Origin: an uncultured Bacteroidota bacterium
GTDB lineage: Bacteria > Bacteroidota > Ignavibacteria > UBA10030
Length of the DNA stretch: 64,000 nucleotides
Direction: 5' to 3'
NCBI GenBank assembly: GCA_963739335.1
Contig: CAVUAC010000063.1
Location: 36,672 to 100,671, forward strand
The position numbers were made by a program, and so were the translations under genes. This document shows positions 24,807-52,261 of this stretch, in pieces (within the stretch, counting starts at the first letter, position 1; the number at the start of each line of letters is the position of its first letter). Under the pieces are notes generated by a model, which was given only the letters and a program-made list of their open reading frames with translations, was not told where the DNA came from and ran no database searches.

Positions 24807-24846
24807 TTGGCTTGCTGCAGTACGGGAATAGAATTGGAGGGTACAG

Positions 24847-25416: not shown

Positions 25417-25468
25417 GATCAAATGACCATCCGAGAGGAATTGTGCAACAAACACGCAAGCCAACGAA

Positions 25469-25643: not shown

Positions 25644-25697
25644 AGCGGCCTCATTTATTACGTCGCTTTGCGGCGCGCTGGTTTCGGAACTCTTGGA

Positions 25698-26114: not shown

Positions 26115-26182
26115 TCTTTACTTGCTTCATACGATCTCGACAACACGTGCGCCGCAAAGCGAAAAAGAATTGAGGCCGCCCA

Positions 26183-26377
26183 ACGCATAAGATGCGGCAA
26201 ACCGACGCTTGCGGGCTAAGATTGGCAGACTATTCTAAAGGCAAAGATTTGTTGAAGCTGTTTTCGGCTCATTCACTCGCTCAATGGTTTTTGGTGTCAG
26301 TAATAGGCTCAGACAAAGCTCATCAGATTTCAGTGTCACCAAAAACCACTGCGGTTTGTCGGAGACCTTTGTGCAAT
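26183..26377 (+). repeat. attC-type site 5 of array 1
   Basis: cgCATAAG-atgcg-GCAAACCG ... GGCTCATTCACTCGCTCAATGG ... CGGTTTGT-cggagacct-TTGTGC. Confidence 0.6.
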
Positions 26378-26401
26378 GCATCTGCACACCAGAACCTGTA
26401 G

Positions 26402-27631
26402 ATGACTATGATACCAATGACTAATGACATTGCCAGAGGCTGGGCGGGTGAGCAATTGATCGCTCGGTTTTTCGACTCAAAGTTCTCAAAGTTCTTCTCA
26501 TTCCCTAATCCCAAGAGTAAGTCGAAGGCTCAAGTGGCAGATGTTCTCGTCTGGATGAACAGGATAGTCTTTCTTATCGAAGTCAAGACTCGAGATAAGG
26601 GTACTGCTTCAATCGATTCTTGGGCTGGCAACAGAATCGAGCGAGGAATTGAACAAATTACCACGAACTTCAATCGTATCAAGCGAAACGAGAGGATATT
26701 GTTACACAATCGGTACTACCACACCGACCTTGATTGCCTCGGAGTTGCGACCGTCGTTGGTTTGATCATTCTCGTTCACGAGGAGGACTGCAAGATTCCA
26801 CCTTCTTCAGTCGCCCCCGACATCTACAAACAGCCCTTGGCGATCCACGTTTTCTCTTGGTCAGACCTTATGCAAATGACTGCCGAGATTGATACAGTTG
26901 CTGACCTACACTACTACTTGACAGACCGTTTCCAGTACTTGAGTTCGGCTGACATTCCGCTAGGAAGCGAACAAAATGTGCTTGGATATTACAGGATGCA
27001 ATCGAACAAGTTTCCGCCCGCTCCTGTCGATTTTGCCGTTTCAAACTACTGGCACCAGTACCAAGTGGAAATGGCAGACCGAATCCTTGCCCGTAACACA
27101 CACAACGAATACTCGTTCTGGCTCAACAAACTGGAATCTGCGTACTCAGATCAGCGGAAGCTCTTCTCCGGCTATCCTCTTGGGCTGTATATGGTTTGGG
27201 AAATAGGTGCAATAAGCCGCAGGGAGCGTGCCTATCTAGGCGAAAAAATCTCATCCGTGCGTAAATGGTTCGAGGCTGGTAACTCTACAAGGAGGTTTGC
27301 TTGGCTCAACCAATCAACTGGCAACTGGCTTGTTTTCTATTTCTCCAAGAGCGAGCCGAAGTTCTTGGAGCGTGAACTGTATCGGCTTGTCGAACTTAAA
27401 CTGATCAAAGAAGTTCACGACGACGCGTTTGACTTCGGTGCATATGGTTTTGGTTTTCAAGTGTCTCTAACGTTTCCGCCTCGCCTTCTTGGATTAGGAG
27501 CCACAATCATAATGGGAGCCGACCTTGTCAAAGGAAAGTACACGCAGGCTGATGTTGATGAATCTCGTATCCACTTCGGCCACAAAGACGACATCCAGAA
27601 AATGAGAATAGAGGAGTTTCCAAGTGAGTAA
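26402..27631 (+). CDS. Cassette protein: NERD / PD-(D/E)xK nuclease-like N-terminal domain plus C-terminal extension
   Basis: GWAGEQLIARFF...QVADVLVWMNRIVFLIEVKTRD matches the D...E-x-K pattern of NERD-type nuclease folds. Confidence 0.6.
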   Translation: MTMIPMTNDIARGWAGEQLIARFFDSKFSKFFSFPNPKSKSKAQVADVLVWMNRIVFLIEVKTRDKGTASIDSWAGNRIERGIEQITTNFNRIKRNERILLHNRYYHTDLDCLGVATVVGLIILVHEEDCKIPPSSVAPDIYKQPLAIHVFSWSDLMQMTAEIDTVADLHYYLTDRFQYLSSADIPLGSEQNVLGYYRMQSNKFPPAPVDFAVSNYWHQYQVEMADRILARNTHNEYSFWLNKLESAYSDQRKLFSGYPLGLYMVWEIGAISRRERAYLGEKISSVRKWFEAGNSTRRFAWLNQSTGNWLVFYFSKSEPKFLERELYRLVELKLIKEVHDDAFDFGAYGFGFQVSLTFPPRLLGLGATIIMGADLVKGKYTQADVDESRIHFGHKDDIQKMRIEEFPSE

Positions 27632-27644
27632 CTTTGCAGGTGCA

Positions 27645-27805
27645 CTGCGCATATCAAACGGCACGCCAGCGCTCGCTCACTGGATAGGCGATGCTAAAAC
27701 GAAGATTGGCTAAATGAAAAGAGCTCGCTCAATGCTGTTGCTCACACATTAGTAGATAGAAGGAGTTCGCAACGGCACTGCGACGCGCCTAAACTGCTTG
27801 CGCCA
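27645..27805 (+). repeat. attC-type site 6 of array 1 (arms less complementary)
   Basis: gcgCATATC-aaacg-GCACGCC ... GCTCGCTCAATGCTGTTGCTCACAC ... GCAACGGCACTGCGACGCGCC-taaactg-CTTGCGC. Confidence 0.5.
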
Positions 27806-27855
27806 CGCATCCTCACAGGAGTTTTTGAGCTACCAATCAACTAGGAGATCAGCAG

Positions 27856-28992
27856 ATGCCCGGAAGACTTCCTGCCCCTCGAGCGGGCGGTTCTCAGTTA
27901 GTCATAAAAGTCAGACCCGTCGACTTTTCATTTTGGTCAACCGCTAGACAAAGACACGGTCACGCTGCGCTACAGTCGCAGGTCTTTGCAAATGATCCCT
28001 GGAACGTCATTGAGTCAGCGATCAACTCACGCTGCGTGAGCGCTCGCAGAACTGCCGCAATAGCGTTTCTTGAGCAGGCGAAAGACTTCTACGAAGCCGC
28101 TGCGTCATCCAGACTGACCACTTCGAAACCTCTACTTTCGTACTACGCGATGCTCAATATCGCAAAGGCCTTCATTCTAAGCTTTGGGGCTCATTCGAAT
28201 CTTGATTCATTGAGGCATGGGCTTTCTGAGGCAAATGCTAGAAATCCAAGGTTGACCACTCATACCGTAGACGCACACGCGTCGACACCGGCGAGCCTTA
28301 ATGCATTTGCCGAGTTTCATCTGGTAGTGTGTGGTCACCCCTTGGCCCGTACCATTCCAATTCCCATAACACAGCTTTATGCCCAATCAATCCTTGGTCA
28401 TCGACTTTGGAGCACGGCGACAGGGCGAAGGGAACGTTTCATCCATATTCCACGCATCTACTATAATCACGATCATATAGCAAGGCATCTCTGGCTAACA
28501 CTTTTCTTCTACGCTGATGACTTACAGAGAATGTCAATCGGTCACACTCAGCTCCTGAACGATGCGCGCCTATCAAGAGACTTCCGGCAAGTCGTCACTG
28601 ATGAAAGCGAGAATAACCGGCGGCTTATTTGCTTCGAACAACGAACTCCTATCAACTTGACCAGTTTTCCATCGGACAGTCTAGACACTCTCAACGGAAT
28701 ACTAAAGAACAACCTCTGGACAATATTGCTATCGTCTCCACCATACCGAAGATTTTATGCCTATGCCGCCGCGGCAGGTGAAATTGTCCTACACCAGCTT
28801 CTGTCAACCTACGCTCTAGCATACTATTTTGGATCCGTAACTAGATATCGACCTCATCAATTTCAATTAATGCTCGAATCACGATATGGCTCTTTCATTC
28901 GGGAGTTCGTCGATCATCAGATTCTTCAATTCATTTATCTGCTTGCTGCGCACTTTGACAGGCGAGACGTGGTGAAACCAGCCGTAATCTGA
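27856..28992 (+). CDS. Cassette protein, YaaC-like
   Basis: AGGAG precedes the ATG. FLEQAKDFYEAAASSRLTTSKPLLSYYAMLNIAKAFIL resembles the YaaC family signature. Confidence 0.5.
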   Translation: MPGRLPAPRAGGSQLVIKVRPVDFSFWSTARQRHGHAALQSQVFANDPWNVIESAINSRCVSARRTAAIAFLEQAKDFYEAAASSRLTTSKPLLSYYAMLNIAKAFILSFGAHSNLDSLRHGLSEANARNPRLTTHTVDAHASTPASLNAFAEFHLVVCGHPLARTIPIPITQLYAQSILGHRLWSTATGRRERFIHIPRIYYNHDHIARHLWLTLFFYADDLQRMSIGHTQLLNDARLSRDFRQVVTDESENNRRLICFEQRTPINLTSFPSDSLDTLNGILKNNLWTILLSSPPYRRFYAYAAAAGEIVLHQLLSTYALAYYFGSVTRYRPHQFQLMLESRYGSFIREFVDHQILQFIYLLAAHFDRRDVVKPAVI

Positions 28993-29037
28993 AAACTCAC
29001 AATGGAAGTTTCTGACTCTGCTAAACGTGCGGCTGCG

Positions 29038-29133
29038 CGGTGCATAACACGCCGCACTACTACGCACGCAAAATAGCATCACCAAGCTCTTGGGTTCGCA
29101 ACGGCGCAGCGGTTTGCTGCAGACCTTAGGTGA
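29038..29133 (+). repeat. attC-type site 7 of array 1 (short, ~95 bp)
   Basis: gtGCATAAC-acgcc-GCAC ... GCAACGGCGCAGCGGTTTGC-tgcagac-CTTAGGT. Confidence 0.55.
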
Positions 29134-29161
29134 AACAGTGGCCAGCTAGGAAGGAGTGAAA

Positions 29162-30190
29162 ATGGATCTCTATCAGATACTTGAAACCATTGGAAAGATC
29201 ACGCTGGGTGTTGGCTGTTTTGGCCTTGTTGCTTGGATTATCAAATTGCTTACCCAAGTGAATAAGAACCAAAAAGAATACATCTCTCTGCTTGAGAAGG
29301 AGTTTCAAGAAAGAGAGAAAACCAGAGAACAAAGAATCGCCAGCATGATAGATATTCACAAACAGGAAGTTAATCTGCTGGAACGCAAACACGAACTATT
29401 GGTTGCTTCCATTGAGTTGGAAAAGAGGACAATTGAACAAAGGTATGAGATGCGTGTAGGGAAGGACACAAAGATACCAAATTACTCGACAACTGGCCTG
29501 ACATCTCTTGCTCTTGACAAACTTGATGACAAAGAAGAATGGAAAAGACTTTCAGATTACCTCTCACATAACATCAAACAAATACTTATCCCCATTCTTC
29601 AGCAGGTGTCTGAACTAAGGGAGATTGGTAAACCTGATGCCACGAGGATTGAACATCTATATGACTACATACATGATCTGAATGAGCAATCGAACCTACT
29701 CACTATCTTCTCAGGAGAGACTCTCACAAAGAACACTCAGATTGACTTGATGGAAGTGTTTAAGAAAGTTGACACCACAATAACGCGTGGAGCTCTTAAA
29801 ATGGTTTTTTCTCCACCTGGGATAACGAGGGTGATGGTGTTGGCCGAAGAAGCAATGCTCTACTACGCCTTGTCCGAAACACTGGAAAATGCAAGAATAC
29901 ATGGAGCTGATTCCAAGGTGTATGTCACAATCACAAGGGACTCTGGTCTTGTTCGTGTAGAAATCAAGAACGTGGCAAGCAGTTGTGTACCAGACCTGGC
30001 GCCAATGAGAGGATATGGTTTGCTGATGTTGCGAAAAACAATTGAGGCAATGCAGGGTGAAATGTCCTACGAAGCCAGAGAGGAAGATGGTCAACCGTTT
30101 TTTGCGGTCAAGGTTAGTCTAGTGGCCGCTGCTTCGCCTGATAGCAGCAACAGCGACGCTCACTCATCTGGTAAGGTTCATGACGAATAG
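29162..30190 (+). CDS. Cassette protein: TM-anchored histidine-kinase-like (H-box plus GHKL ATPase) protein
   Basis: GGAAGGAG precedes ATG 29162. The TM is ITLGVGCFGLVAWIIKLL. It has an H-box-like LSHNIKQIL and the ATPase motifs LENARIHG...GYGLLMLRKTIEAMQG. Confidence 0.6.
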   Translation: MDLYQILETIGKITLGVGCFGLVAWIIKLLTQVNKNQKEYISLLEKEFQEREKTREQRIASMIDIHKQEVNLLERKHELLVASIELEKRTIEQRYEMRVGKDTKIPNYSTTGLTSLALDKLDDKEEWKRLSDYLSHNIKQILIPILQQVSELREIGKPDATRIEHLYDYIHDLNEQSNLLTIFSGETLTKNTQIDLMEVFKKVDTTITRGALKMVFSPPGITRVMVLAEEAMLYYALSETLENARIHGADSKVYVTITRDSGLVRVEIKNVASSCVPDLAPMRGYGLLMLRKTIEAMQGEMSYEAREEDGQPFFAVKVSLVAAASPDSSNSDAHSSGKVHDE

Positions 30191-34768: not shown

Positions 34769-36112
34769 TCACTTTGCTTGGCGCCCTCCCATTTCCGCAT
34801 CAGCAAAAAGCCTCAACACTTGCGCAGATGGGTAAGTGGACAGAGAAGCGATTGAATGAGCTAGTTCGATGGGCACAAGTGCATTCTCGTGACGACTGCT
34901 GAGCAGGGGAGGCAAGGTTGCGATCATTCGTTCGTAGCCAATCAAAGAAGAGATGTCTGGAGTCATGATGTAATCTCGCATCGGTTTCGTAACCGGCACG
35001 CTTAGGACCAAGAAATGGCGACCGGCAACATTGATGAATACTTTTGCCCCATAGTTGGTATCCTTTCCATAGGGTGCACCTTCTGCAGGCCGATGTTGTA
35101 TCTGCTCACATATGTAGTGATGATCCGGAATGAAGAACGTGTTTTCGGGTGCTGCACGCTTAATCAGATCAAAGTGCTCTACGAAAGAACCTGTTTTTTC
35201 CTGGCCAAGGATAGAGACTGGATAACCTTGGTTATAAGCGTGAATGAGAAAGCGTCTGATTGGCTGTACGAGCTTCGAGTACTGGGCACGTATCTGAAGT
35301 GGCCCATCCTTTAGAAAAAGGCATCGATGCAAAACTTCGCGATTCGTTTCCCAGAAGTGACGAATTCCAGTGAAGAGCAACAGAGTCTCGTGAACACCCA
35401 TGTAGGACGTCGCAACTACATCAGCGGCAGAGTCTTCCACCATGTCGTGATGGAAACCAAGCATGTCTGTAAGATAGATTGTTTTTCCGCACGCCGGACA
35501 ATTTCCTTCTTCCAAATCATAATCAAGTGTAGCCCGGCCACTCGCACACTCAGGGTGGGGACATTCAAAGAATGGCAATTGTCTCCTTTGTCCTGACCAT
35601 TTCTCAAAGGCAATCCACTTTAGTGTCTCCATAATCTCGCCTTTAATCGAAGGCGAGGGATCCTTGATAGATTCATAGATTATCTGCCGAATGGTATGGT
35701 AGACTGTAGTGCCGGGTACCTTGACGTGACGTAGAGGAAATACTGTGGCATGATATATGGCCGAGTCCGACATTATGTCTCGAAGTGCAAATGGATGTGG
35801 AGATTGTTTGTCAACTCGCGCCAGTCTGACTTGATCGACGACCATCAAAGCAGTCTTAATGAATGCCAAGGCCTTGTGAGGTGGGACTTCATCCTGAATG
35901 ACTTGAAAGGAACCATCCACAGCAAATACCAGATCCAACGGTTTGCCGGAAAAATCGAGAGGGTTCCATCTGGACTTGTCCACTTGTGGATCAGCTTCGA
36001 TTTCCTCAAAACTTTTTATCAGCTGCTTCACAAGCGGGCTATTGAGCACATCCAGATGTCCTAGTCTTGATGCTCTTTCGCCAGGGAGTCTCTTACCAGA
36101 ACTATAGGGCAT
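34769..36112 (-). CDS. NurA-like nuclease with inserted zinc ribbon
   Basis: It has DLVFAVDGSFQV, FLKDGPLQ and GQEKTGSFVEHF (NurA D / DG / EK-type motifs). The Zn ribbon is CPHPEC...CPACG. It is operon-linked to the HerA-like ATPase. Confidence 0.7.
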   Translation of the reverse strand: MPYSSGKRLPGERASRLGHLDVLNSPLVKQLIKSFEEIEADPQVDKSRWNPLDFSGKPLDLVFAVDGSFQVIQDEVPPHKALAFIKTALMVVDQVRLARVDKQSPHPFALRDIMSDSAIYHATVFPLRHVKVPGTTVYHTIRQIIYESIKDPSPSIKGEIMETLKWIAFEKWSGQRRQLPFFECPHPECASGRATLDYDLEEGNCPACGKTIYLTDMLGFHHDMVEDSAADVVATSYMGVHETLLLFTGIRHFWETNREVLHRCLFLKDGPLQIRAQYSKLVQPIRRFLIHAYNQGYPVSILGQEKTGSFVEHFDLIKRAAPENTFFIPDHHYICEQIQHRPAEGAPYGKDTNYGAKVFINVAGRHFLVLSVPVTKPMRDYIMTPDISSLIGYERMIATLPPLLSSRHENALVPIELAHSIASLSTYPSAQVLRLFADAEMGGRQAK

Positions 36113-36136
36113 AAGTTAGCCGAGCTCCTCCTAGGA

Positions 36137-38095
36137 TCAACCGGTGCGGTTTGTTCCTCGCACCTTGGGATCAAATTTGCGAGCTTGCACCGGTATGACA
36201 AAACGATGGCTGCGCGTCAACATCCTTATGTAGCCGGGCGTTTTCGCCCGTAAGATGTCGTCTTTCATATTTTCGTAGGAGACATTCATCTTCGCCAACG
36301 CGGTCACTTCATCCTGTGATGACATATGTGCAATGAAAAAATTCTCTGTCTGAGCCAGAAGATCTCTATTGATTGAGGTTACCGATTGAGTTGAATAAAC
36401 CATCCCAATATGATACTTGGCACCTTCTTTTGCTAACCTGCGATAGATATCGACCGCTCCCTCTTCCCTAGCTGGAAATAGGTTATGAGCCTCTTCAAAA
36501 TACAACTGAATGTAGTGATTGCCTAACTTGTTGTTTGTGAACTTATCCACTTGGTGTGCAAGCACAGCGAGAGAAAGCTCTTCGGAGAAATACTTCATCA
36601 CTTCTTCATCAGCGTTCCCAAAATCGAGGATAACAGTCTGCCCATCATCCAGCTCATCAACTATATCGTTTATGAAATCACCTGCTTTCGCATCGTGATA
36701 GATATCAAACCGCTGTATCATTTTTGTCCCAGCCCCACTTGTCGGCTTGAGGAAATCGAGCAATGCTATATCATCCGAATCCAAGAGAGGTTTGTTGGAA
36801 GACGAAGTTAGAGGGCTTTCTCTATTGGCATTGATTATAAACTCCATTTCTTGTTGAAGTGCATCGAGGTCCAGGATCTTCGGCGGTTTCTGGCCTCCAT
36901 ATATTCGATCACGAACTTCTTTGTTGAACCCCGGATCAATGTTGAGCAGGCCCGCTAATTTTTTCTCGTCGGCGCGGAACCCCGCCTTGTGTAGAATTGC
37001 CCAATACATCAAAACCTTGCGTTTGGCTCTTAGTTGTTCGTTCTTTGGGAGGGATTCAAGAGTCTCAATTGGTGACAGGCTAATTCCTCTGAATGATTGG
37101 ACGTAGATAGCGGTTCGGCCTTCGCCACTGAGAAGGTTCGAGAGTATCCTATGAGATCGGTCCGGATGTTCATAGAAGTCGAGCTTCAACGGTCGCGAGG
37201 GAGGACTAGTCTTTGGGGTCAGAGCATAAACAGCGCACCTATCTTTATAGGCACTCGACAGAGAATAGTTACCATCCTGTGGATTGTCGTTTGCATATTC
37301 CCCATTGATATCGAATATCAGTTGTCCAACGTTTTTGGTTGCAGAGGTTGTTTCAATTAGGCTTTGCGCGATGAGCTTTATAACATTGCTCTTGCCTAGG
37401 CGTGTCTTGCCGAACATTGCTGTTCGTGCAGCAAGGAAGTCCCTCGTTGATACCCACACAGGGACATTTGGTTGTTTCTTGTTTGGTAGCGGTAAACGAC
37501 ATTCTGTTAGGCGAAGGCCTCCAAGTTGAAATCGATTTTGCTTAGCAACTAGAATGTTGACGACCAGATCAAGAAGTGCGTCATCAGGAGCATATACCCG
37601 ATATTTGTGAGCGCTGACAAAGTTGTTCATGTCACCAGAGAACTCCACGGTGTCCTGTTGTTCTGGGTTGGGATAAAACATTCCTAGAACCGATGTGTTC
37701 AATGCCCCCCATTGAAGCTCTGACTGTGTAAATACGTCGAGCTCGGGCATCGACTTCTTTTGCAGCTCGAAATAGGTCTGTTGGGTTTCTTTCGAAAGCG
37801 GCGTCGGTGCAGCATCGAGCACACGCAGGAGCGTGAAGTGCGGCGTAACCATTGCCTCGGGGACCGAAGCTGTCATTATGAGAAGTGAATTCCTTGGGAC
37901 GCCTCCTACTGCAATTTTGAATGGATCTGAAGTAATGATCGTTACAGTGTCATAGTTGATGTCGAGTACGTAGCCGACAAAGCGCATGTCATCGTAGCGC
38001 TTCGCCTTCTCGTTAGATTCCTCATTCTCCATGAAATTTTGTAAAGCGCGCAAAGGATGATTTTGGTGGGCCGCCTTAATAAAGAATTCTTTCAT
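36137..38095 (-). CDS. HerA/DUF87-like P-loop translocase ATPase
   Basis: It has an N-terminal barrel (FVGYVLDINYDTVTIITSD). FGKTRLGKSNVIKLIAQ is Walker A and IQLYFEEAHNLFP is Walker B. It also has GMVYSTQSVTSI. Its ATG overlaps the Dam stop (ATGA). Confidence 0.8.
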   Translation of the reverse strand: MKEFFIKAAHQNHPLRALQNFMENEESNEKAKRYDDMRFVGYVLDINYDTVTIITSDPFKIAVGGVPRNSLLIMTASVPEAMVTPHFTLLRVLDAAPTPLSKETQQTYFELQKKSMPELDVFTQSELQWGALNTSVLGMFYPNPEQQDTVEFSGDMNNFVSAHKYRVYAPDDALLDLVVNILVAKQNRFQLGGLRLTECRLPLPNKKQPNVPVWVSTRDFLAARTAMFGKTRLGKSNVIKLIAQSLIETTSATKNVGQLIFDINGEYANDNPQDGNYSLSSAYKDRCAVYALTPKTSPPSRPLKLDFYEHPDRSHRILSNLLSGEGRTAIYVQSFRGISLSPIETLESLPKNEQLRAKRKVLMYWAILHKAGFRADEKKLAGLLNIDPGFNKEVRDRIYGGQKPPKILDLDALQQEMEFIINANRESPLTSSSNKPLLDSDDIALLDFLKPTSGAGTKMIQRFDIYHDAKAGDFINDIVDELDDGQTVILDFGNADEEVMKYFSEELSLAVLAHQVDKFTNNKLGNHYIQLYFEEAHNLFPAREEGAVDIYRRLAKEGAKYHIGMVYSTQSVTSINRDLLAQTENFFIAHMSSQDEVTALAKMNVSYENMKDDILRAKTPGYIRMLTRSHRFVIPVQARKFDPKVRGTNRTG

Positions 38096-38957
38096 GGTTT
38101 TGGGACTCCATTAATGGGACAGCTTGACAGCACGATTTCGCCCGACTTTTTCGTTATCGCACCGGGCATGCGCCCAGTTCCGCGTGGCAGGGCAAGGGAT
38201 TCACACCCACGGTACAACTTAACAATGTCCGGATGAGAGGAAATCGTCAATAGCCATTTCACCTTTCTCTTTTTCGCTCCGGCCAATACACTCGCCAGCC
38301 GACGATGATCATCGTAGGTAAATTGCCTGCCAACATAGTGACCATTGACCAGCGCTTTTTCACCTGGCCGGTAAGGCGGGTCGAGAAAAACAAAATCGCC
38401 TTCGTCGCAATTCTCGATAACTTCCTCGAAGTCGCAACATCGAATTGTTGCGCGTCTCAAGGAACGTGACAAATCATTGAGTGTGCACTCATCGATTACC
38501 CAACGACGAGCTTGCCCCCCATAGCCAACATTGAATTTTCCATTAGTGTTGTGACGCCACATTCCCTTGAAGCAGGTTCTGTTCAGATAAAGCACTCGGG
38601 CAGCTCGCTCAGCAATGTTACACGGTTCAAAGTAATCGCGAATTGAATGGTAATCTCGCTTAGTACTGCCAAATTTCCATACCATTTCCAAACTGTGCGG
38701 GGATCGTACCGAATTCCACGGTACAGGTCGATGAGATCAGGATTAACATCGGACAAAATGGCTTGCCTCGGTGATGTGTAGAGAAAGACGGCGCCACCAC
38801 CAACAAACGGCTCCACATAGCGCCCTTCAATCTCTTCGGCAGAAGGTATGAGCTGCCCTAAGAAGTCCAACATTCTGCGTTTACTGCCTGGGTATCGCAG
38901 AAAACTCTTAATGTGAGCTTGCTCTCTTCCTGCCATTAGATGATTCATCTGAACCAC
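38092..38957 (-). pseudogene. Dam-like (D12 class) N6-adenine DNA methyltransferase split by one frameshift
   Basis: Track ORF 38583..38957 carries RYPGSKRRM...EPFVGGGAVF...SDVNPDLIDLYRGI. Track ORF 38092..38691 carries YLNRTCFKGMWRHNTNGKFNVGYG...FVFLDPPY. The frames overlap at 38583-38691. Confidence 0.75.
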
Positions 38958-40833
38958 TTATGTTTCCTTCATCATTCTTTCAAATCGTCGCCTAGTCGAT
39001 CCATCCAAGAAATAGAAGAATGTTCCCCTGATCCCTCGTGTGCACAGCACACGATAAAGGTGTTTGAGTTTTTCGAGCGCCAATTCAGGGTTTTTTGTCA
39101 GGCCCATTTTAAACTGTCGATCACAGTTTTCATCGAGGTCGCCGAGCCATTTGTTCGTCGTTGAATCCCATCGAAGATCAGAGCCAAATATAACGCCAAC
39201 GTAATCAAATTCAAAGCCCTGGGCTGAATAGATGCAACCGATTTGCTCAAATCCCTCTGGTTGCATTGCCCAGATCTTGTACGGATGCTTTGAGGGATTC
39301 TCGGCGCTTCCCTTATTGGTTCTCCACATGTCTCTGGGTTTGCGATTCCATGGTCTAGACCAAGCACCGATCTGCACATCATTAACGAGCTCCCCATCTT
39401 TCCCTGGATCCGACCAAAGCCAATCAAAGCCTGCCACTATTCGGGCGGAGAATCCTTCTTCCGTTTTCCGACGAAGTGCCTTCTCAAGATCACGAGGGGA
39501 TTCGAACACGCTCACTTCGTATTCTTTGTTACGCTGCCAAGCCAATGATTTTAACCCAGAGAGATCCAAAACAGTATCGACCCATCGGACATATGATTCG
39601 CTTCCGGCACATCGAAACTGAGTCTTCAAGTCATAAACACTCACAGCAATGTTCTTGCGCTCCGCGCAATTCGTGATATGGTCAAGAGATCCAACCTCAG
39701 CCACTCTCACGCTCTGTTGTCCATCAAGCAGAAAGACCGAAACTTTCGACGCACGGATGAGTTCTTCTGCCTGCGGATTGTGAGATAATATCCGCGGACC
39801 AAACTGAGTTCTCAGGCGCAAACGATGAGCTTCGTCACAAACCACCAATTCAATACTATCTTTCGCTGCGTTGATGAAGTTGTGTGTGTAGAGGAATGGT
39901 TCTTCTCGACCAACGATTCCTCTTAGATTCGTGGTAAAAGCCTTGGATCCAGTGGCGTGAACGGCATTATACCCTCGGCGGGCCGCAGCACCCAACACTT
40001 GGACTGCGATGACACTTTTTCCCGTTCCGGGGCCACCGAGCACAACGATTACTTTTTTCAGCTTTCTTTTTCGGGCATTTTCGACGTCTGAAAGAATGCG
40101 GTTGAAAACGACCCGTTGTTCGTCCAACAAATTCCAGGGCTCGTACTTCTCGATGGAGTCAGCAACGAAATCAAGAAGTTTCTTGCTGGGCTTATACTGC
40201 CCCGTGAGAATGGAGTCAACGAGCTTCGTTGAGGCCCCACACCACGTCCGTTCGCCAACAAACTCGGACAATTCTCCCATAGTCTCGATGGTGAATGCTG
40301 GTGAGTCTTTCAAGATTTCTGAATATCGAGCATCGAAGAAATGCGATTCTATCTCCGATTTGACGTTATGCAGGTAAGCGCAACTAGCAAGTTTGATGCG
40401 GCCATTACCAAAAGCTGAGTGAGCATCCTGAAGATACCGGCGATAAGCCCTCACTTGAGCACTTGGATGAAGCAAGTCTGAATTCCCAATACGAACGACC
40501 TCTGACGCATCTGTGGCTTTACAAGTATCCCATTGTTTGAATTCAGTCAGGACTGCGTGTTTTTGTTTGCTCTTATCTGATCCAAGAACCATGCAGTCGA
40601 TAACGGCATGAAGACAAAGGAAGCTGGTATTCCAAGACTATCCATGCATCGTCCATTCCCACATCAGCGACTACTTCGGCGAAAGCACTAAGTGAATTCT
40701 TCCAAGATCGGACTTCCGACTCCGACGGACGAGCATCAAGCCTCTCTACAAACCGCTCTCGGAGTAAATCAGCAATTTGGCCGGAGGTAGCCTTGGGAAT
40801 AAACGTCCTCAGTCTGCAATCATATAGATGCAT
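38958..40833 (-). pseudogene. DUF2075-type ATPase/helicase-like protein split by one frameshift
   Basis: The N-terminal ORF 40573..40833 reads ...SWKNSLSAFAEVV...VLEYQLPLSSCR. ORF 38958..40592 reads MVLGSDKSKQKHAVLTEFKQW...VLGGPGTGKSVIA...VVCDEAHRL. Removing one T in CGTTATC restores ..SCRIDCMVLGSD.. Confidence 0.7.
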
Positions 40834-41867
40834 TATGATGGCCCAGTCCCTTTTAACAGTTTCAATGCTGCTTCGTATGCGTCCTTGAAATCAAGCCCTG
40901 TATCTAAGTTCGGGTCGATCTTCTTGAACCCGACATACATGAAGCTAAGCAGCTGAAGTCCAGAAAACTGTTCTTGAGGTATCGACTTGAGTGAGTACCG
41001 CCTGTCAGCCTTCGTAAAGTCAATTCCTGCCGTTCCAAGCGTCCCAATCTCGAAAGCGATGCTCTTTATCTCTTCGGATGTCATGTGCTCGAATCGCTCA
41101 AGAGCATTCATAAGATACATCACCGTGGCTGGTTCTTTCAACTTGAGTAGCTCTGGGTTCGTCGTCCCCTGTGGATGCTCCTTCATCGGGACGTCGTCTC
41201 TGAACTCGAACCACTCTCGGAGCCTGAGTATCTCGGCAAACTTGCCAACGAGCTTGTACTCATCTGCTGCACCAATGTCCTTATACATATCAAGCCAAAC
41301 ATGGAAGAGCTTGTCGCCTGTTGCAAAGACGTTGGATGCCTTATAGAGCTTGGTGTATTCAGTCTTCCCTTTGTAGAGCCAATCTGCGAACAGAGCATAA
41401 GAGGTATTCATCGCAACATTGGCTTGATAGATCTTTCGCGGAGTGAGCTTCTGAACGTCTTCGGAAGTCAGAACAGCGGCGTTCTCTTGTTGGGTGGAGT
41501 ACAATGAAACGAACTGAAATGGACGAATGTGCGGATACCGATGGAAGAGACGGTACTCAATCACCATGTCAAGAGGACAATTGAAAAGTTGGTTGGTCAA
41601 TCCCGACACCCACTCCAGTGTTAACCGATTGGCCTCGTCACTCGGAATCCCAGTTTGACGCAGTTTGTACTTATCATCTCCAAGCGATTGAAGCGCCTTC
41701 TCCACTGTCGCGTTGGTCGTTACGAACAGTTTGCTTTTGCCAGCATTGCGTGCTTCGAACTCGAGCGTGATGTGCTCCAATTCATGAGCAAGCAAGTGGG
41801 GGACGATGGAAGGCAAGTTGGGTCGGTAGATAATCTTGTGCTCAGGTCCGATTGTTCTTCCACGCAA
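40833..41867 (-). CDS. HExxH zinc-metallopeptidase-like protein
   Basis: It has HLLAHELEHITLE. The listed start is a TTG, and the frame overlaps the end of the TPR ORF by 26 nt, so the two may be one frameshifted gene. Confidence 0.55.
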   Translation of the reverse strand: MRGRTIGPEHKIIYRPNLPSIVPHLLAHELEHITLEFEARNAGKSKLFVTTNATVEKALQSLGDDKYKLRQTGIPSDEANRLTLEWVSGLTNQLFNCPLDMVIEYRLFHRYPHIRPFQFVSLYSTQQENAAVLTSEDVQKLTPRKIYQANVAMNTSYALFADWLYKGKTEYTKLYKASNVFATGDKLFHVWLDMYKDIGAADEYKLVGKFAEILRLREWFEFRDDVPMKEHPQGTTNPELLKLKEPATVMYLMNALERFEHMTSEEIKSIAFEIGTLGTAGIDFTKADRRYSLKSIPQEQFSGLQLLSFMYVGFKKIDPNLDTGLDFKDAYEAALKLLKGTGPS

Positions 41868-42777
41868 GTTGGGTTTTGGCAGTCACCCCTTTGAGTTCGT
41901 CATCCCGAACTATTTCAACAGGGAAGCCCGTCACTTTTTCGATGGTCTTGCACCTCTCGTCGATGAACTTCGTCAGAGCTTCATTGGGCTTTTCAGCGAG
42001 GTCTTTGTTCAGTTGCAGGTACATCGCACGAGCCTGTTCATAGACAGGTGCACTCCGTATGTCAGGTGAAGGTTCTTGGCTGAACAACTCATCCAATGTA
42101 CCGAGAGCCGACTGATTATCGTTCTGTTTCGATTGAAGAACAGCCAGTCCTAGGAAGGAGTTTGGGTATTGAGGGTTGAGGCCGATTGCACGTCTAAAAA
42201 GATGGCTTGCCTCTTCATGTGCACCCTTCTCTGCTTTCAACGCTGCGTATGCATTCAGTAGGTAGGGGTCATCAGGATTGAGTTCGTATGCCTTCCTGTA
42301 GAACGGTTCAGCCGAATCGGGGTCGTGCTCAGACCCGAAGTAGATGTTGCCCAGGAGCACGTAGCCCCACACATCCTTTGGGTCTAATCGTAGGACATCT
42401 ATCAACTGATTCTTTGCCTCTTCTACGTCGCCTCCCTCCATGTTTGCCATTGCCAAATTCCTACGAGCGTCGTTGTGATACGGAAAGTATTCGAGACTCT
42501 TCTTCAGGATTTGGATAGCCCCACGATAGTCACCCTGCTTCGCCTTGTTGATTCCTCGTTCAAACAACCTTTGAGCTTCTTCGATTGCCTTCTCCTTCTG
42601 CTCGGGAAGGTTAATAACCGCCACTCCGTTCTCGATTGAGACCTCAACAGCAAAGGAGAGAAATCCATATGATTTCTTGATTAGGGCGATGGCTTGCTCA
42701 TCCGGCAGTTTGGTTAGATCAATTTTCTCGTCGGCGTCAACGAGAAAGTCTTTGAGGGCAATGAGGACGATTGACAT
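41842..42777 (-). CDS. TPR-repeat protein
   Basis: Several TPR units: GDYRGAIQILKKSLEYFPYHNDARRNLA..., EEAKNQLIDVLRLDPKD..., AEPFYRKAYELNPDD..., EEASHLFRRAIGLNPQY. Confidence 0.7.
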   Translation of the reverse strand: MSIVLIALKDFLVDADEKIDLTKLPDEQAIALIKKSYGFLSFAVEVSIENGVAVINLPEQKEKAIEEAQRLFERGINKAKQGDYRGAIQILKKSLEYFPYHNDARRNLAMANMEGGDVEEAKNQLIDVLRLDPKDVWGYVLLGNIYFGSEHDPDSAEPFYRKAYELNPDDPYLLNAYAALKAEKGAHEEASHLFRRAIGLNPQYPNSFLGLAVLQSKQNDNQSALGTLDELFSQEPSPDIRSAPVYEQARAMYLQLNKDLAEKPNEALTKFIDERCKTIEKVTGFPVEIVRDDELKGVTAKTQLAWKNNRT

Positions 42778-43378: not shown

Positions 43379-44374
43379 TCATCCTTCCGACGGGACAATC
43401 TTCACCCAAAGAGGTCTGTGGTCAGAAATGTAGTACCTGCAGTAAGTGAAGAAGTCGGCATGCTTCTTCTTGCCTCCGGTGTTCTGGTACAGATCTGCGA
43501 AAATCATCTGGTCATAATCGAACACACCCGTTTCCTCAGTCACGTGATGTTGCGTCGTTGGAAAGAACATTATCTGGTCATAGTGGTTGACCTGTTTGGC
43601 GACATTTCTGTCTTGTCCTGGAAGAGTTGAGCCGATAGAAGTGGCGTGGACGGTGGAGTGGAAGCCGTTCTTGGAGAAAATCTTGTATATCGGGTCTTCC
43701 TCTTCCATATACGGGAGATTGAAATCACCGAGCAAGAGAATGTCTTTTTCGGTTGCATACTTTGAGGCCACCATTGACTTCGCCCATTGAGCCATCGCAA
43801 GTGCTTCCAGTTGTCTTCGTTGTATGGCGATCTTCTGTTCACTCTTGCCTTTGAAATAGAGGTGGGCGTTTACAAGGCAGAACTTGAAGTCCTTGAAGGT
43901 AAACGACTGCAAGAAAGGATTGCGGTCAAATCCTTGGAACTGGACTTTGGCTCCGGGGATGGTGATTCGCTTGAAGTGGCTCGGAGGCGGAGCAATCTCA
44001 CCGACAAGTTCACGAGTGCTCAGCTTGTCGACATCGAAGACAAATGTCATCCGCTCAACGTTCCCTGCAAGATCAGTGTAGAGCACTCGATATTTGCTCC
44101 CCAAAAATCCCATCAGTTCTTGAAGGTGATCAAGATTGCTACCCATCTCCTGCAAGGCGATAATGTCAAACCATCCGATGATTTCTGACATGAGGTGGAT
44201 GTCGTCTGGTCGTCGCTCTTGCACTCCGAAGTTGGCGAGATTCCATGTGGCCAACAGTAAGCTGCGCTGGTCCTTCTCTGGAATCTTCCGATCCACCTTG
44301 TGCTTGCGAAGAGCTTCCAGCTCCGTTTCGACCTTGTAGATGTATGTGAACTTGGGTTTTGGGTTTGCGCGCAT
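43379..44374 (-). CDS. Endonuclease/exonuclease/phosphatase (DNase I-like) family protein
   Basis: It has LLLATWNLANF, FDIIALQEM, LLLGDFNLP and YISDHRPLWVKI. Confidence 0.8.
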   Translation of the reverse strand: MRANPKPKFTYIYKVETELEALRKHKVDRKIPEKDQRSLLLATWNLANFGVQERRPDDIHLMSEIIGWFDIIALQEMGSNLDHLQELMGFLGSKYRVLYTDLAGNVERMTFVFDVDKLSTRELVGEIAPPPSHFKRITIPGAKVQFQGFDRNPFLQSFTFKDFKFCLVNAHLYFKGKSEQKIAIQRRQLEALAMAQWAKSMVASKYATEKDILLLGDFNLPYMEEEDPIYKIFSKNGFHSTVHATSIGSTLPGQDRNVAKQVNHYDQIMFFPTTQHHVTEETGVFDYDQMIFADLYQNTGGKKKHADFFTYCRYYISDHRPLWVKIVPSEG

Positions 44375-44852: not shown

Positions 44853-45830
44853 CTATGACCCAATCGCCTGGGAAACAGACTGCAATTGACGGCGTCTCGA
44901 ATCAATGGCTGTGGCGATCCGCTTGCCCTGATCCTCAATAAGCCTCTTGGAGCTGATCCCCTTAAGCCTACTCTGCTCGATAGAGTTCAGTCGGTCAACA
45001 GTAGTTGCTTTTTGGATTGCTTCCAACATCGCTACGGCTTCCTTCTCGCCTGTCAAAAAGCCTGACTCATTGAACATCGGCGTCCCGATTGACGCAACAA
45101 CGGTCGCAGCCGGCGCCGGTTGTTGACCTCGGTCGAGCCATTCGAGAATCTGCTTGCCGATCTTCTCGTCCGGTTTGGAAACCAACCTGCCGTCAAAGAG
45201 GCTTGACCGATCTTTCGTGGACTGGGCGTTGTGGTTAAGGTCGAGATCGAACACGATGTCGAACTCATAGTCCATGCCCTCGCGTTGCACGGGGGCAAGT
45301 CCAACCTTCTTCGGGACTGACTTCCCCTTCTCGTTCGTCTCAACAACGTAGTCCATCTTCGAGCGCATCGTTGCGATAAGATGAAGCTTGGAGCGAATCA
45401 TTGCCTCGATGAAAGCGTTGTGCTGGGGTGTGAGTTTGCGCCAGGCCGTGAAACTATTCATGCCGCCATCAGCCATTTTGCCCTGTGTATCGAGCAGGCC
45501 ACCCTCGCCTGCCCAGGCATGAGAGATGCTGTCTAGGATGAGCACATCGTAGGCGGCAGCCTCGGCCTGGTGGATAGCTTTGATGTACTTGTCGATCTCA
45601 AATGGGGGTTCGATGTTGAGAACATCGAAGTCGATGCGGTCGGCATAGAGCACGCTGGAGTTGTTCTCGGTGTCGACGAGGGCGATCCTCTGGCCAAGGC
45701 CAGAGGCAAGTTTGAGTGCCGAGAGGGTTTTCCCGGATCCTGCTGCGCCGCAAAGACCGATGCGGGCTTTCTTGACGATGCGTTGGGCTTTTTGGAAGCC
45801 AGAGAGTTGAGATGATGATGTGGTGTTCAT
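44853..45830 (-). CDS. Phage-type AAA_24 / Sak4-like RecA-fold ATPase
   Basis: KARIGLCGAAGSGKTLSALKLA holds the Walker A motif. It also has VLILDSISHAW and LIATMRSK. Confidence 0.75.
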   Translation of the reverse strand: MNTTSSSQLSGFQKAQRIVKKARIGLCGAAGSGKTLSALKLASGLGQRIALVDTENNSSVLYADRIDFDVLNIEPPFEIDKYIKAIHQAEAAAYDVLILDSISHAWAGEGGLLDTQGKMADGGMNSFTAWRKLTPQHNAFIEAMIRSKLHLIATMRSKMDYVVETNEKGKSVPKKVGLAPVQREGMDYEFDIVFDLDLNHNAQSTKDRSSLFDGRLVSKPDEKIGKQILEWLDRGQQPAPAATVVASIGTPMFNESGFLTGEKEAVAMLEAIQKATTVDRLNSIEQSRLKGISSKRLIEDQGKRIATAIDSRRRQLQSVSQAIGS

Positions 45831-48762: not shown

Positions 48763-48920
48763 GCCTAACGATGGCGGCTAAGCCGCGGGAACGAAAACTT
48801 TCAAGATAGTTGTACACGAAACAAGTTCCGCGTAGATTATTTCCTAAATTCACTCGACCTATGCAAGCCATGCTAATTGTACCGACACTCCTTCCGTCAG
48901 GTTGAGCGACTGTAACGCCG
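48763..48920 (-). repeat. attC site of array 2
   Basis: Plus strand: GCCTAAC-gatgg-CGGCTAAGCCGC ... GTCAGGTTGAGC-gac-TGTAACGC. Confidence 0.65.
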
Positions 48921-48930
48921 CATCTATTCG

Positions 48931-49383
48931 TCAGCAAAGTGTCTTCCAAATCAATACGAACCAGAAACACAAGGTTGAGGCAGGAAGTAGCCATACAAGT
49001 ACGAATTTGCCGGAGGGGTGTCTGTGCACCGCCTCCATGTAAATCTTATACGTTGGATCGCCGGTCATGAGGCGCTCGTTTAGCGGTTGCATGCGCGCAG
49101 CAAGCCGCTTGCTCATGTAGAACCAACCAAGGGTGTAGATCACGCCTAAGGAAGCGATGGCCATACGGAATGTCTGGGCTGCGTAGCCTTCGTGAGGTAT
49201 CGTAAAAAAGGCGACAACCAACATGGATTGGGCGACAAGGGAGAAATTCTGGCGCGCGTACTGAAGTGTATCTGCGTGCTGCAGATATTTCCAGGTGTGA
49301 TCAAGATCTAGCAAATCAGGACGCTTAGCGTTATTTTGGGGTTTCTTCGACAAGATTCTATTCCTTAATTGAGAGTGCGGCAT
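48931..49383 (-). CDS. Cassette protein: small 2-3 TM membrane protein
   Basis: Hydrophobic segments are FSLVAQSMLVVAFFTI, MAIASLGVIYTLGWFYM and FVLVWLLPASTLCFWFVLIW. Its ATG lies inside the attC core (GTTATGC). Confidence 0.6.
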   Translation of the reverse strand: MPHSQLRNRILSKKPQNNAKRPDLLDLDHTWKYLQHADTLQYARQNFSLVAQSMLVVAFFTIPHEGYAAQTFRMAIASLGVIYTLGWFYMSKRLAARMQPLNERLMTGDPTYKIYMEAVHRHPSGKFVLVWLLPASTLCFWFVLIWKTLC

Positions 49384-49526
49384 AACGGACGGCAGCTAAG
49401 CTGCGGAGTAGACTGTCTCGGACTTCACTGTCCCGAGCGTTGGCTGATGCAAATTCATTCATGTGTGTGGGCATTAGTTTTCACCGACGCTCAGTGCGTC
49501 AGCTTGAGCCGCTGGTTAGGCGGGCC
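49379..49526 (-). repeat. attC site of array 2
   Basis: Plus strand: GGCATAAC-ggacg-GCAGCTAAGCTGC ... GTCAGCTTGAGC-cgct-GGTTAGGC. Confidence 0.75.
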
Positions 49527-50341
49527 TCACTATCGGCCTCGGGCTCTGGTGACTTTGGTTTCGGGACAACCTCGTGAAACAACTTGGCTATTCGAGGATT
49601 TGCGGTGTCAGAGTTCATACGAACAGAATATGTATGACTTTCCCGAAGCACCTCTGTTGAACAGATGAAATCAACCTTTCTGTAGAAGGGGCTTGTCTTA
49701 GAGACAACCTCGTATCTATACCGATACAGGCGTTGAACTGAAAGATATTTGCTCTCAATAATGCGTATGGTAATGCGCTGACCTAGCATTTCTACGCTAC
49801 CGAGCTTGGTCACCTCCTTTGAGCGCTTCCTTCGAACTGTACTAACTGCTAATGGCTTGTTCAGCGGAATCGAGGCAGATTGTTTCGCGAGCTTGTCAAC
49901 GGCTCTGTTGAAGATGTCGGAGGAATGTGCCTTCACCTTTTGGAATTCAACTCTTGCTCTGGTTTGGCGAATTGCCTTTATCAAGTTCTTCCATAGTCGT
50001 GCATTAAGAACCGGTGCTCCAGATTTCTTCAGCCACCTAGTTCGCGGCCATAGAAACATCGCATTCTTGTAGTTTGTGAAAACATAATTGGAGTCTGTGA
50101 GAATTATGATCTTGCGGAATTGCCGTTTCTCCAAATAGGGCCCTGCGTTTTCGAGTGCAACAATGCAAGCGTTGATTTCCATCTCGTTGTTCGTGGCACT
50201 CTTGTAGCCTGGCAAATTCAAAGGCTCGGAGACTTCCTTCCCATTGTGATCTACGTAAACAAAGATAACTCCGATGCCGCCTCTTCGGGGCCTTGACTTA
50301 GAAGATACCATCTGTATAGATGTTGAGCGCCCGTTCGTCAA
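49499..50341 (-). CDS. Cassette protein: RNase HI-like domain plus ~130-aa unknown C-terminal domain
   Basis: It has TNNEMEINACIVALE, IIILTDSNYV and VKAHSSDIFNRAVDKLAK. The first catalytic Asp of the DEDD set is not evident at the N-terminus. The stop lies inside the attC. Confidence 0.65.
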   Translation of the reverse strand: MTNGRSTSIQMVSSKSRPRRGGIGVIFVYVDHNGKEVSEPLNLPGYKSATNNEMEINACIVALENAGPYLEKRQFRKIIILTDSNYVFTNYKNAMFLWPRTRWLKKSGAPVLNARLWKNLIKAIRQTRARVEFQKVKAHSSDIFNRAVDKLAKQSASIPLNKPLAVSTVRRKRSKEVTKLGSVEMLGQRITIRIIESKYLSVQRLYRYRYEVVSKTSPFYRKVDFICSTEVLRESHTYSVRMNSDTANPRIAKLFHEVVPKPKSPEPEADSEARLTSGSS

Positions 50342-50370
50342 TCATTGGAGATATCTGTGATGCCAACTCA

Positions 50371-50508
50371 GGCCCGCCTAACAGCCGGAGCTAAGCTGCA
50401 GCGAGACCAACGTGAGCATTAGGTACTACACGAACCATAGACCTACCCTAGCAATGGAGGCTTGACCGCTGCCCGTTACGTCAGCTTAAGCGACGGCTTA
50501 GGCGGGCA
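50371..50508 (-). repeat. attC site of array 2 (textbook architecture)
   Basis: Plus strand: GCCTAAC-agccg-GAGCTAAGC ... GCTTAAGC-gacgg-CTTAGGC. On the minus sense R' reads GTTAGGC. Confidence 0.8.
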
Positions 50509-50509
50509 C

Positions 50510-51514
50510 TCATTTCAGTTCCCGTTTCACGTGGTACGGAACACGAGGCACGCCGAGATGCAGTCCCTCAGGATAGACAGTGGCAATCTGATTCAGTTGC
50601 CGGCCGTCCGGTCCGAATGCTGTGATCCAAGGCGTCTGAAGGTCTTGGATCATCTTCTTGTCTTGATCGTAGAAGCAGGTGCCCAATGTGACGGCTATTG
50701 AGATGGGGCTTCCGGTCAGCGAACCGCTTGTCAACGTCGCCCCGGAATGGGTCATATCGAAACGGATTGCGAGCTGAGTTGGATTCTCTGTGGCAAAAGG
50801 GGTTACGTGGTGGTCTATGAGTTCATTGGGAGCAATCTGCCAAGCGCTCACGCTTTGGGCGACTTCGGACTTCAGAGACTGGTCCAGAAGTTGGGTAATT
50901 GACTTGATGTCTGGCTTCAATTCGTCATGAGGGATGGAACTGAGGTACGAATCAATGTCGCCAAAGACTGCAAGCAAGAGCTTTTGCGTATGAATCTCGG
51001 CTGACAACTGGGGATGCAGTTCATTCGAAGTCGCCCAGAAGGCTTTGTCGTCCGTGATTAGGACCGCCTCGTTACTGCGTGCCACGTCGACAATGGTCTC
51101 CCAGATAACGCTATCGCGGAACTGCTCCTCGCGATGTGAGGGAGGGACATGTAAGATGACGCGTTGTACGGCTGAATCAAACTTAGAGTGGTCCTTCGGA
51201 CTCTCCAGTATGAGAGGCGAAAGCCTTTGAAGGCGATCCGAAATGGCCTTCACCAGCTCCCCTTCAACGGGCCATTTTATGCCGGGTTTCGTTCCAGTGA
51301 GAGCTTGTAGGGTAACCAATTCCCTCTCGATGCGCTGAATTGTGGTTTGGCACTCGGCGAGGACTCTCTCTTCGACCTCACAGCGAACTATCCAAGGCAA
51401 AAGAATCTGGGATTTGGTGTTCTTGAGGGAGAAAAGGAAGGCGGCGGCCACAGACGAGCGCAGGAGGCGTTCCTTAATCCAAACATTCGCGTCGAGGCAA
51501 ATGAGGCGTTCCAT
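50510..51514 (-). CDS. Cassette protein: N-terminal PIN-like domain plus C-terminal extension
   Basis: It has MERLICLDANVWI and ...VLITDDKAFW (acidic PIN-type residues). It is 334 aa. Confidence 0.6.
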   Translation of the reverse strand: MERLICLDANVWIKERLLRSSVAAAFLFSLKNTKSQILLPWIVRCEVEERVLAECQTTIQRIERELVTLQALTGTKPGIKWPVEGELVKAISDRLQRLSPLILESPKDHSKFDSAVQRVILHVPPSHREEQFRDSVIWETIVDVARSNEAVLITDDKAFWATSNELHPQLSAEIHTQKLLLAVFGDIDSYLSSIPHDELKPDIKSITQLLDQSLKSEVAQSVSAWQIAPNELIDHHVTPFATENPTQLAIRFDMTHSGATLTSGSLTGSPISIAVTLGTCFYDQDKKMIQDLQTPWITAFGPDGRQLNQIATVYPEGLHLGVPRVPYHVKRELK

Positions 51515-51540
51515 GGAATTGTGGATGGGTGATGGTTGAG

Positions 51541-51755: not shown

Positions 51756-51763
51756 TTGCCGAG

Positions 51764-52228: not shown

Positions 52229-52261
52229 CGGCGATCCGCTGTAAGCCGTTGTTAGACCTCT

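Follow-up and report, generated by a model that had tools for sequence, protein, structure and literature searches.

The stretch of DNA analyzed here, a window of 64,000 nucleotides (nt) from contig CAVUAC010000063.1 of an uncultured Bacteroidota bacterium (Ignavibacteria, UBA10030), carries on its minus strand a compact gene cluster between positions 34769 and 42777 (all coordinates are positions in the window). The core of the cluster is a widespread, unnamed three-gene unit, referred to below as the triad, that codes for a D12/Dam-family N6-adenine DNA methyltransferase, a HerA-type ATPase and a putative NurA-like nuclease. The locus consists of two adjacent defense-type modules with the same direction, module A (38958-42777), composed of a gene with tetratricopeptide repeats and an HExxH motif (TPR-HExxH) and a DUF2075 ATPase gene, and module B (34769-38957), which is the triad (Table 1). 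The open reading frame (ORF) finder yielded eight pieces, which the initial annotation had arranged into a six-gene operon. However, the TPR and HExxH ORFs are one gene split by a 1-nt insertion, and the number of genes is five. The TPR, DUF2075, MethyltransfD12 and DUF87/HerA domains assigned to them were borne out by a Pfam hidden Markov model (HMM) search.

The four junctions that had been described between these genes were all correct on direct reading. The TPR-HExxH and DUF2075 genes share CATAATGCAT at 40833, a TAATG stop/start overlap, the TAA of DUF2075 abuts the GTG of the methyltransferase (38958/38957), and the methyltransferase and herA genes overlap by ATGA (38092-38095), an arrangement that recurs in relatives L002-L004. 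A 24-nt spacer (36113-36136) containing an AGGAGG box separates herA from the NurA-like gene. The close gene spacing within the triad suggests translational coupling. A promoter and terminator scan gave no difference from shuffled sequence.

Table 1. Features of the cluster and of its surroundings, with positions in the window (aa, amino acids)
Feature	Position	Strand	Basis or remark
NurA-like nuclease, 447 aa	34769..36112	-	Fold matches of its model and HMM matches of family members; predicted effector of the triad
HerA/FtsK-type ATPase, TdpA-like, 652 aa	36137..38095	-	PF01935; predicted hexameric double-stranded DNA (dsDNA) translocase
D12/Dam-family N6-adenine DNA methyltransferase, 288 aa once repaired	38092..38957	-	PF02086, TIGR00571
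DUF2075/Schlafen-group-3 helicase-type ATPase, 624 aa once repaired	38958..40833	-	PF09848
TPR-HExxH gene, 647 aa once repaired	40833..42777	-	TPR Pfam matches; conserved HExxH
Missing C, methyltransferase	38679/38680		Homologues and contig L098
Extra T, DUF2075	40602		Homologues and contig L098
Extra T, TPR-HExxH	41844		Homologue alignment
Predicted pPIWI-associating nuclease domain	23489-24652		PF18165
Weak NERD match	26402-27631
YaaC-like protein	27856-28992
Weak HATPase_c match	29156-30190
Exo_endo_phos-type nuclease/phosphatase	43379-44374	-	Directly upstream region of the cluster
AAA_24 ATPase	44853-45830	-	Upstream of the cluster

Conservation and composition of the triad

We compared 80 genome loci encoding relatives of the nuclease with all the proteins of the window and considered informative the 69 with at least 3 kb of upstream DNA. 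The order methyltransferase, HerA, NurA-like was found in 66 of these with a strict adjacency filter, and in 67 once L064 is counted, whose genes overlap and hence failed the filter. DUF2075, TPR and HExxH genes did not appear within 10 kb in any of the informative loci (0/69), and DUF2075 was absent from all 80 nuclease loci. The six-gene operon that had been proposed is not one conserved unit, and the triad is without the other genes in the 69 genomes with sufficient upstream DNA. Triads are carried by Chloroflexota, Acidobacteriota, Cyanobacteria, Bacteroidota, Planctomycetota, Deinococcota and Proteobacteria, as well as by bacteria of the candidate phyla radiation (among them Saccharibacteria) and by methanogenic or Methanoperedens archaea, and cultured carriers include Meiothermus hypogaeus, Aeribacillus pallidus, Halomonas stenophila, Ectothiorhodospira shaposhnikovii and Deinococcus pimensis. 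This spread across phyla, with NurA-like proteins that are 48 to 66% identical, points to horizontal transfer.

The methyltransferase is divided in the window into ORFs of 124 and 199 aa, both matched by PF02086 MethyltransfD12 (E values of 4e-27 and 2e-15, Pfam) and by TIGR00571 (Dam family, NCBIfam), while homologues across the break read ...VWKAYEKFGSTK... It carries FVGGG and DPPY motifs, so that a D12 methylase with catalytic motifs is tightly linked to a nuclease, by the ATGA overlap with herA and by synteny, as in restriction-modification (R-M) systems. Its target may be GATC-like, and we take GATC as a lead because the enzyme belongs to the Dam family, one relative of the nuclease adjoins a DpnII system, and Tdp modification takes place at GATC.

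The window HerA is full length relative to its homologues, matches PF01935 DUF87 above the gathering score (E value of 8e-14), and has a Walker A motif (GKTRLGKS) and an FEEAH motif in its translation. Among PDB sequences, its top phmmer match was TdpA (8wet_A, E value of 8e-24), in two aligned stretches that include the Walker A motif as well as the ATPase core at the C terminus, whereas every other HerA in the PDB, including those of SIR2-HerA, DUF4297-HerA and Sulfolobus, gave 1e-8 or worse. The PADLOC HerA models matched it weakly (1.5e-17).

Searches of Pfam, NCBIfam, PADLOC and the PDB sequences returned no match for the 447-aa nuclease. Its family comprises 1310 clusters at 90% identity (E value of 0.001 or better) and 611 representatives at 50% identity. 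We obtained an AlphaFold (AF2) model from a 35-sequence alignment, with a predicted local distance difference test (pLDDT) value of 80, and its top Foldseek match was TdpB (8wfd_G, E value of 3e-8, TM 0.46/0.55), with further matches to Pyrococcus furiosus NurA (3tai), TM1739 (1zup) and Deinococcus radiodurans NurA (7f6d). Argonaute PIWI domains, which also have an RNase-H-like fold, ranked next, with nonsignificant E values of at least 0.1. The Pfam NurA model (PF09376) matched 21 of 84 diverse family members (best E value of 8.5e-26), and the RefSeq/PGAP label of 25%-identical plasmid relatives is "DNA double-strand break repair nuclease NurA." Because of the HMM matches within the family, the fold of the model, and these names of relatives, we assign the protein to a divergent clade of putative NurA-like nucleases. 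The earlier NurA call holds in this sense, although the window protein itself is without an HMM match. Near-invariant residues are D66 (FAVDGS), E242, D269 (KDGPL) and E305, together with cysteines C184, C189, C205 and C208, a four-cysteine Zn-ribbon insert; comparison of the family profile with the PDB gave a weak resemblance of this region to Zn-ribbon proteins. A phage origin of the nuclease was considered and is unsupported, since a single viral contig carries it.

Beyond the closest relatives, the pair of nuclease and motor is found with other methylases. In L096 and L097 (27% identity) the order is N6_N4_Mtase, DUF87 and NurA-like, L174 also has an N6_N4 methyltransferase before HerA and the NurA-like gene, and Deferribacter plasmid pDF308 carries an unclassified "DNA methyltransferase," a DUF87 gene interrupted by an IS200/IS605 element, and NurA. 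In L094 (33% identity), a HerA-NurA-like pair without a methylase of its own lies beside a complete DpnII (GATC) R-M system; positions 1-3000 of this locus (GCA_013409995.1) hold a D12 methyltransferase, DpnII, an N6_N4 methyltransferase and a DUF7004 gene. The D12 triad of L095 adjoins a Type III R-M system and a PycTM gene, and the neighbors of other triads include Type IIG R-M (immediately 5' of the triad in L006), DrmMI, MADS and PbeA genes. In L070, from H. stenophila, the methyltransferase and HerA are separated (5468-7169) by a small membrane protein and by a protein of 394 aa in which a DGQHR motif is found; we take the latter protein to be DndB-like, from the motif as read by eye and not by HMM.

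A constant pair of nuclease and motor whose methylase is exchanged, and which lies in defense islands, is characteristic of R-M-like systems. The synteny of the triad and the exchange of its methylase support the suggestion of the initial annotation that an N6-adenine methyltransferase is tied here to a nuclease-translocase module of the R-M type. The accompanying remark that this is not a named system also holds, since none of the models of PADLOC-DB 2023 covers the nuclease, a family that it would therefore miss, and we found no description of a methylase-HerA-NurA triad in the literature. A weak mad8 match was rejected as evidence of MADS, as the other mad genes are all missing.

Frameshifts and the genes of module A

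Frameshifts had been noted in the methyltransferase and in DUF2075, but the window contains three, since the TPR-HExxH gene is also interrupted, and single-base repairs restore lengths that match those of the homologues (Table 1). Logan contig L098, from an independent assembly of the same strain (run ERR10755944), corresponds to window positions 41257-36365 with 99.92% identity over 4.9 kb. The insertion at 40602 is missing from it, the C is present at 38679 and its methyltransferase is intact, with 288 aa, while an extra G of its own, at 39661, disrupts DUF2075 at another site. By comparison with L098, the base lost from the methyltransferase of the window is a C and not an A of an A-run. 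Another Logan contig, L001, is identical to window positions 36365-33166, and exact-sequence look-ups with the HerA, DUF2075 and TPR ORFs of the window gave no matches. The A/G difference between the window and L098 at 37207 changes Ser to Gly in HerA, and some of the differences, such as this one, could be real strain variation.

Errors of the assembly or minor variants are the likeliest explanation of the three single-base frameshifts. The combination of frameshifted methyltransferase and DUF2075 genes with intact HerA and NurA-like genes, pointed out previously, is present in the window, but both indels are absent from L098. Because L098 has an intact methyltransferase, the contrast between a broken methylase and an intact nuclease is most likely an assembly artifact or a minority variant or polymorphism. 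That the frameshifts are real and that the cluster is a decaying remnant, nonfunctional here, seems very unlikely to us. The three 1-nt indels do fall within 3.2 kb (38679-41844), none of them in a long homopolymer, DUF2075 is also broken in L098, and some other triads have decayed, with HerA split in L027, L047, L066 and L073, the nuclease by itself and no triad in L045 and L053, and the insertion sequence of pDF308. However, decay is hard to reconcile with the state of L098, with the full length of both HerA and the NurA-like gene, and with the self-toxicity that should arise if the restriction pair stayed intact while its methylase was broken.

In the TPR-HExxH protein, TPR repeats make up the N-terminal part, and the helical domain at the C terminus contains the conserved motif PHLxAHELxH. 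Homologues of 490 to 655 aa span both window ORFs (P0272, P0276 and L174:5018-6985 are such single proteins, the last an intact 655-aa version), the homologues of the HExxH ORF include single proteins of 473 to 600 aa with TPRs at the N terminus, and homologue alignments pass from the TPR frame directly into the HExxH frame. P0272 reads ...AWKHNRTEHRVIYQPNLP..., where the window has ...AWKNNRT* and then, one frame over, ...EHKIIYRPNLP, which locates the extra T. The HExxH half had no Pfam match, even with the upstream strands restored, and a model of the HExxH domain (pLDDT of 88, starting at the frameshift and hence excluding any N-terminal beta-sheet) had no PDB match at an E value of 1 or better with Foldseek. 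What remains of the "HExxH peptidase" that had been called here is the conserved motif, with neither a peptidase HMM nor a zincin fold match, and the motif hints weakly at peptidase activity.

The DUF2075 protein is matched by PF09848 SLFN-g3_helicase (formerly DUF2075), with an E value of 7e-79 and full coverage of the model (1-354). Its homologues have about 620 to 625 aa, the N-terminal region in the window has an RID...EFK motif, and the similarity to PADLOC models (PDC-S41, AbiO and Nhi) is weak. Some homologues of about 790 to 820 aa (P0424, P0435, P0444 and P0470) are fused to Peptidase_S24 (LexA-like), a second peptidase-type association of the DUF2075 family that is unrelated to HExxH.

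The TPR-HExxH family is rare, with 82 clusters, and we surveyed its neighbors in 80 metagenomic loci (L099-L178). DUF2075, which had been counted as a part of the nuclease-translocase module, is rather the commonest neighbor of TPR-HExxH (24 of the 80 loci), usually directly 3'. Other neighbors were Type I and Type III R-M, McrBC-like, SacI, BsuBI/PstI and Mrr nucleases, together with MazG-like genes and SNF2 plus DUF1156. TPR-HExxH and DUF2075 recur together as a module of their own, often next to restriction systems, and module A is probably an independent or accessory defense element. TPR-HExxH lies directly 5' of DUF2075 and of restriction-type systems of many kinds, which suggests that it serves such systems as a portable accessory or regulator.

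All five genes might alternatively form one integrated system, in which TPR-HExxH and DUF2075 sense or regulate and the triad executes. This is unlikely in our opinion, even if the genes share the same strand throughout and their junctions overlap or abut. The triad appears in 2 of the 80 TPR-HExxH loci (or 3 of 81, if the window is counted), seemingly above chance for so rare a triad, judged informally, and these two independent metagenomic loci recombine the same parts in other orders: TPR-HExxH, a ResIII fragment, D12 methyltransferase, HerA, NurA-like and DUF2075 in L177, and in L174 the N6_N4 triad, TPR-HExxH and DUF2075. Such joining hints at more than chance adjacency, and a looser functional link between module A and the triad is possible, although the data do not demand one. 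However, in the 69 informative triad loci no upstream gene lay within 10 kb, the relatives of TPR-HExxH adjoin many unrelated restriction systems, and the order differs in all three joint loci, which fits neighboring defense-island cassettes better than a fixed operon.

Relation to known systems and proposed mode of action

The closest characterized relative is TdpAB, which the initial annotation did not mention. Both the triad and TdpABC have a HerA-type ATPase and a nuclease of NurA fold (putatively so in the triad) linked to a single DNA modification gene, and both the best solved-structure relative of the window HerA and the best fold match of the nuclease model come from the latter (TdpA and TdpB). 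TdpABC is a phosphorothioate (PT)-based defense system of thermophiles (PDB 8WET, 8WFD and 8Y1K; An et al., Nat Chem Biol 2025). The names of the PDB entries indicate that TdpAB is the restriction part, TdpA hexamers are reported to encircle duplex DNA, and PT reportedly blocks TdpAB translocation and cleavage on self DNA. The GpsATC motif of Tdp is also the Dam site. The tdpABC genes are counted among PT-based R-M systems, in which tdpC alone suffices for PT synthesis, with a GpsATC consensus (PMC12914056). The differences lie in the modification slot, which holds a D12 adenine methyltransferase (N6_N4 in other branches) and not TdpC, in the window and in 66 of the 69 loci, with no direct search for TdpC; in the nuclease, with 447 aa and a Zn-ribbon insert compared to 375 aa in TdpB and a similarity that is nonsignificant by sequence; and in the spread of the triad, which is not confined to thermophiles. 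The triad falls outside Tdp on account of TdpC, but by analogy it plausibly works in the same way, and it may be best described as a methylation-based counterpart of TdpABC, with N6-adenine methylation replacing phosphorothioation.

Other relatives are more distant in organization. SIR2-HerA and DUF4297-HerA (Gao_Her) also combine HerA with an effector in defense islands, but the effector of the triad is a putative NurA-fold nuclease and a methylase is present, which points to self/nonself marking rather than abortive infection; HMM searches found neither SIR2 nor DUF4297 domains in the cluster. With Type II R-M of the Dam/DpnII type, the triad shares a D12 methyltransferase (FxGxG, DPPY) apparently coupled in translation to nuclease genes, although its restriction is predicted to proceed via an ATP-driven ring translocase and a processive nuclease and not through a PD-(D/E)xK endonuclease.

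The HerA-NurA end-resection pairs of archaea and Deinococcus have, like the triad, a DUF87 HerA, which stands beside a NurA nuclease with an RNase-H-like fold that the model of the window nuclease matches (3tai and 7f6d). The HerA-NurA of Thermococcus kodakarensis cuts both dsDNA strands, and the destruction of foreign DNA has been raised as a possible role (PMC12977600). The triad departs from these pairs in being methylase coupled, mobile and patchy, and its window nuclease misses the Pfam NurA model. In the integrative and conjugative element ICEth1 of Thermus thermophilus, an operon comprises Tth111II, the NurA-like TTC1878, the HerA-like TdtA and an N4/N6 methylase, and DNA donation depends on TdtA and on the nuclease (PMC5365140). 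This mobile tdtA operon is like the triad in gene content, as it brings together a nuclease of NurA-like type, a hexameric HerA/FtsK-like ATPase and a DNA methylase; the order differs (nuclease, ATPase, methylase), the methylase is PF01555 and the role is "transjugation."

It could be argued from these examples that the HerA-NurA-like pair is a repair (end resection) or DNA export machine, with a methyltransferase that is incidental or otherwise employed. Canonical HerA-NurA resects DNA ends, the ICEth1 pair is required for donation, PGAP names distant relatives as a repair nuclease, and the Type IIG gene 5' of the triad in L006 echoes ICEth1. We nevertheless judge a repair or export role improbable, as neither mre11 nor rad50 was seen among the scanned neighbor genes, where a linkage of the end resection type was thus not encountered, and a patchy distribution across domains at 48 to 66% identity is ill suited to a housekeeping repair gene. 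Strict coupling to a methylase whose family is exchanged is an R-M signature, and the window HerA is much nearer to the defense protein TdpA than to repair HerAs.

We consider it rather probable that module B is an autonomous mobile R-M-like system, that module A is independent or accessory and that the frameshifts are errors or minor variants. By homology and by analogy with TdpABC, the triad probably destroys unmethylated foreign DNA. The Dam-family methyltransferase would mark host DNA, and the HerA/TdpA-like ATPase would form a hexameric ring that translocates on dsDNA. As in archaeal HerA-NurA and TdpAB, this ring would feed DNA to the NurA/TdpB-like nuclease, which would degrade it processively, probably from free ends. 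Methylated self DNA would block loading, translocation or cleavage, in the manner of PT in TdpAB, and the Zn ribbon may contribute to contact with DNA or HerA.

Several observations weigh against an autonomous R-M-like triad. There is no intergenic space 5' of the methyltransferase in the window, which makes cotranscription with DUF2075 probable here, and two metagenomic loci (L174 and L177) also join both modules. The family profile of the nuclease reaches TdpB in the PDB at an E value of 0.74, and the kinship with TdpB is visible by fold alone. GATC depletion in carriers is weak, with a median observed/expected ratio (O/E) of 0.82, and is not decisive for them or for the window; GATC ranks lowest or second lowest of the palindromes in 12 of 51 loci, compared to about 6 expected by chance. 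The NurA-like/HerA-like/methylase cluster of ICEth1 serves DNA donation and not defense (PMC5365140). A further difficulty is how a ring translocase or its nuclease would read a base modification.

More tentatively, and with slightly less than even confidence, we propose that triads are a large unrecognized class of ATP-dependent R-M systems (about 600 clusters at 50% identity, in bacteria and archaea) that would processively destroy unmodified DNA, with TdpABC as its PT branch, methylation acting as a "stop," and TPR-HExxH as a portable accessory, often with DUF2075. If the triad does restrict unmethylated DNA, the HerA-NurA "shredder" model would extend from the PT-based Tdp to adenine methylation, and to mesophiles, archaea and many phyla.

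Surroundings of the cluster

Two families of dispersed repeats of 30 to 110 nt, such as CGCATAACAAGCGGCAAACCG... and GCATAACGGACGGCAGCTAAGCTGCGG, are found at gene boundaries in 21093-27804 and 48880-54207. None appears from 28 kb to 48.8 kb, the interval that holds the cluster. The repeats on both sides are consistent with attC-like sites of integrons and agree with the earlier description of the locus as lying between two cassette arrays. The cassette-like genes at 23489-30190 look defense related (Table 1).

Further along the window, 54330-56941 encodes a large secreted protein with BNR/Sortilin repeats, a CHAP domain and a Por_Secre_tail (type IX secretion system sorting signal), in a gene built of about eleven repeat units of 120 to 123 nt; the sorting signal hints at a host similar to Bacteroidota (FCB group), and its two overlapping ORFs may be another frameshift. 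Three collinear segments of 41 to 84 nt, with 93 to 96% identity, occur at 57581-57803 and again at 60909-61205, about 3.3 to 3.4 kb apart. These repeats (families D11, D16 and D19) flank the gene at 58323-60197 and include AT-rich motifs of the ATTGACAATTG type and a hairpin-like element. At the other end, a tandem array of an 8-nt unit, TTAACTGG / TTAATTGG (family D4), occupies 1429-1564, just 5' of the ORF at 726-1460.

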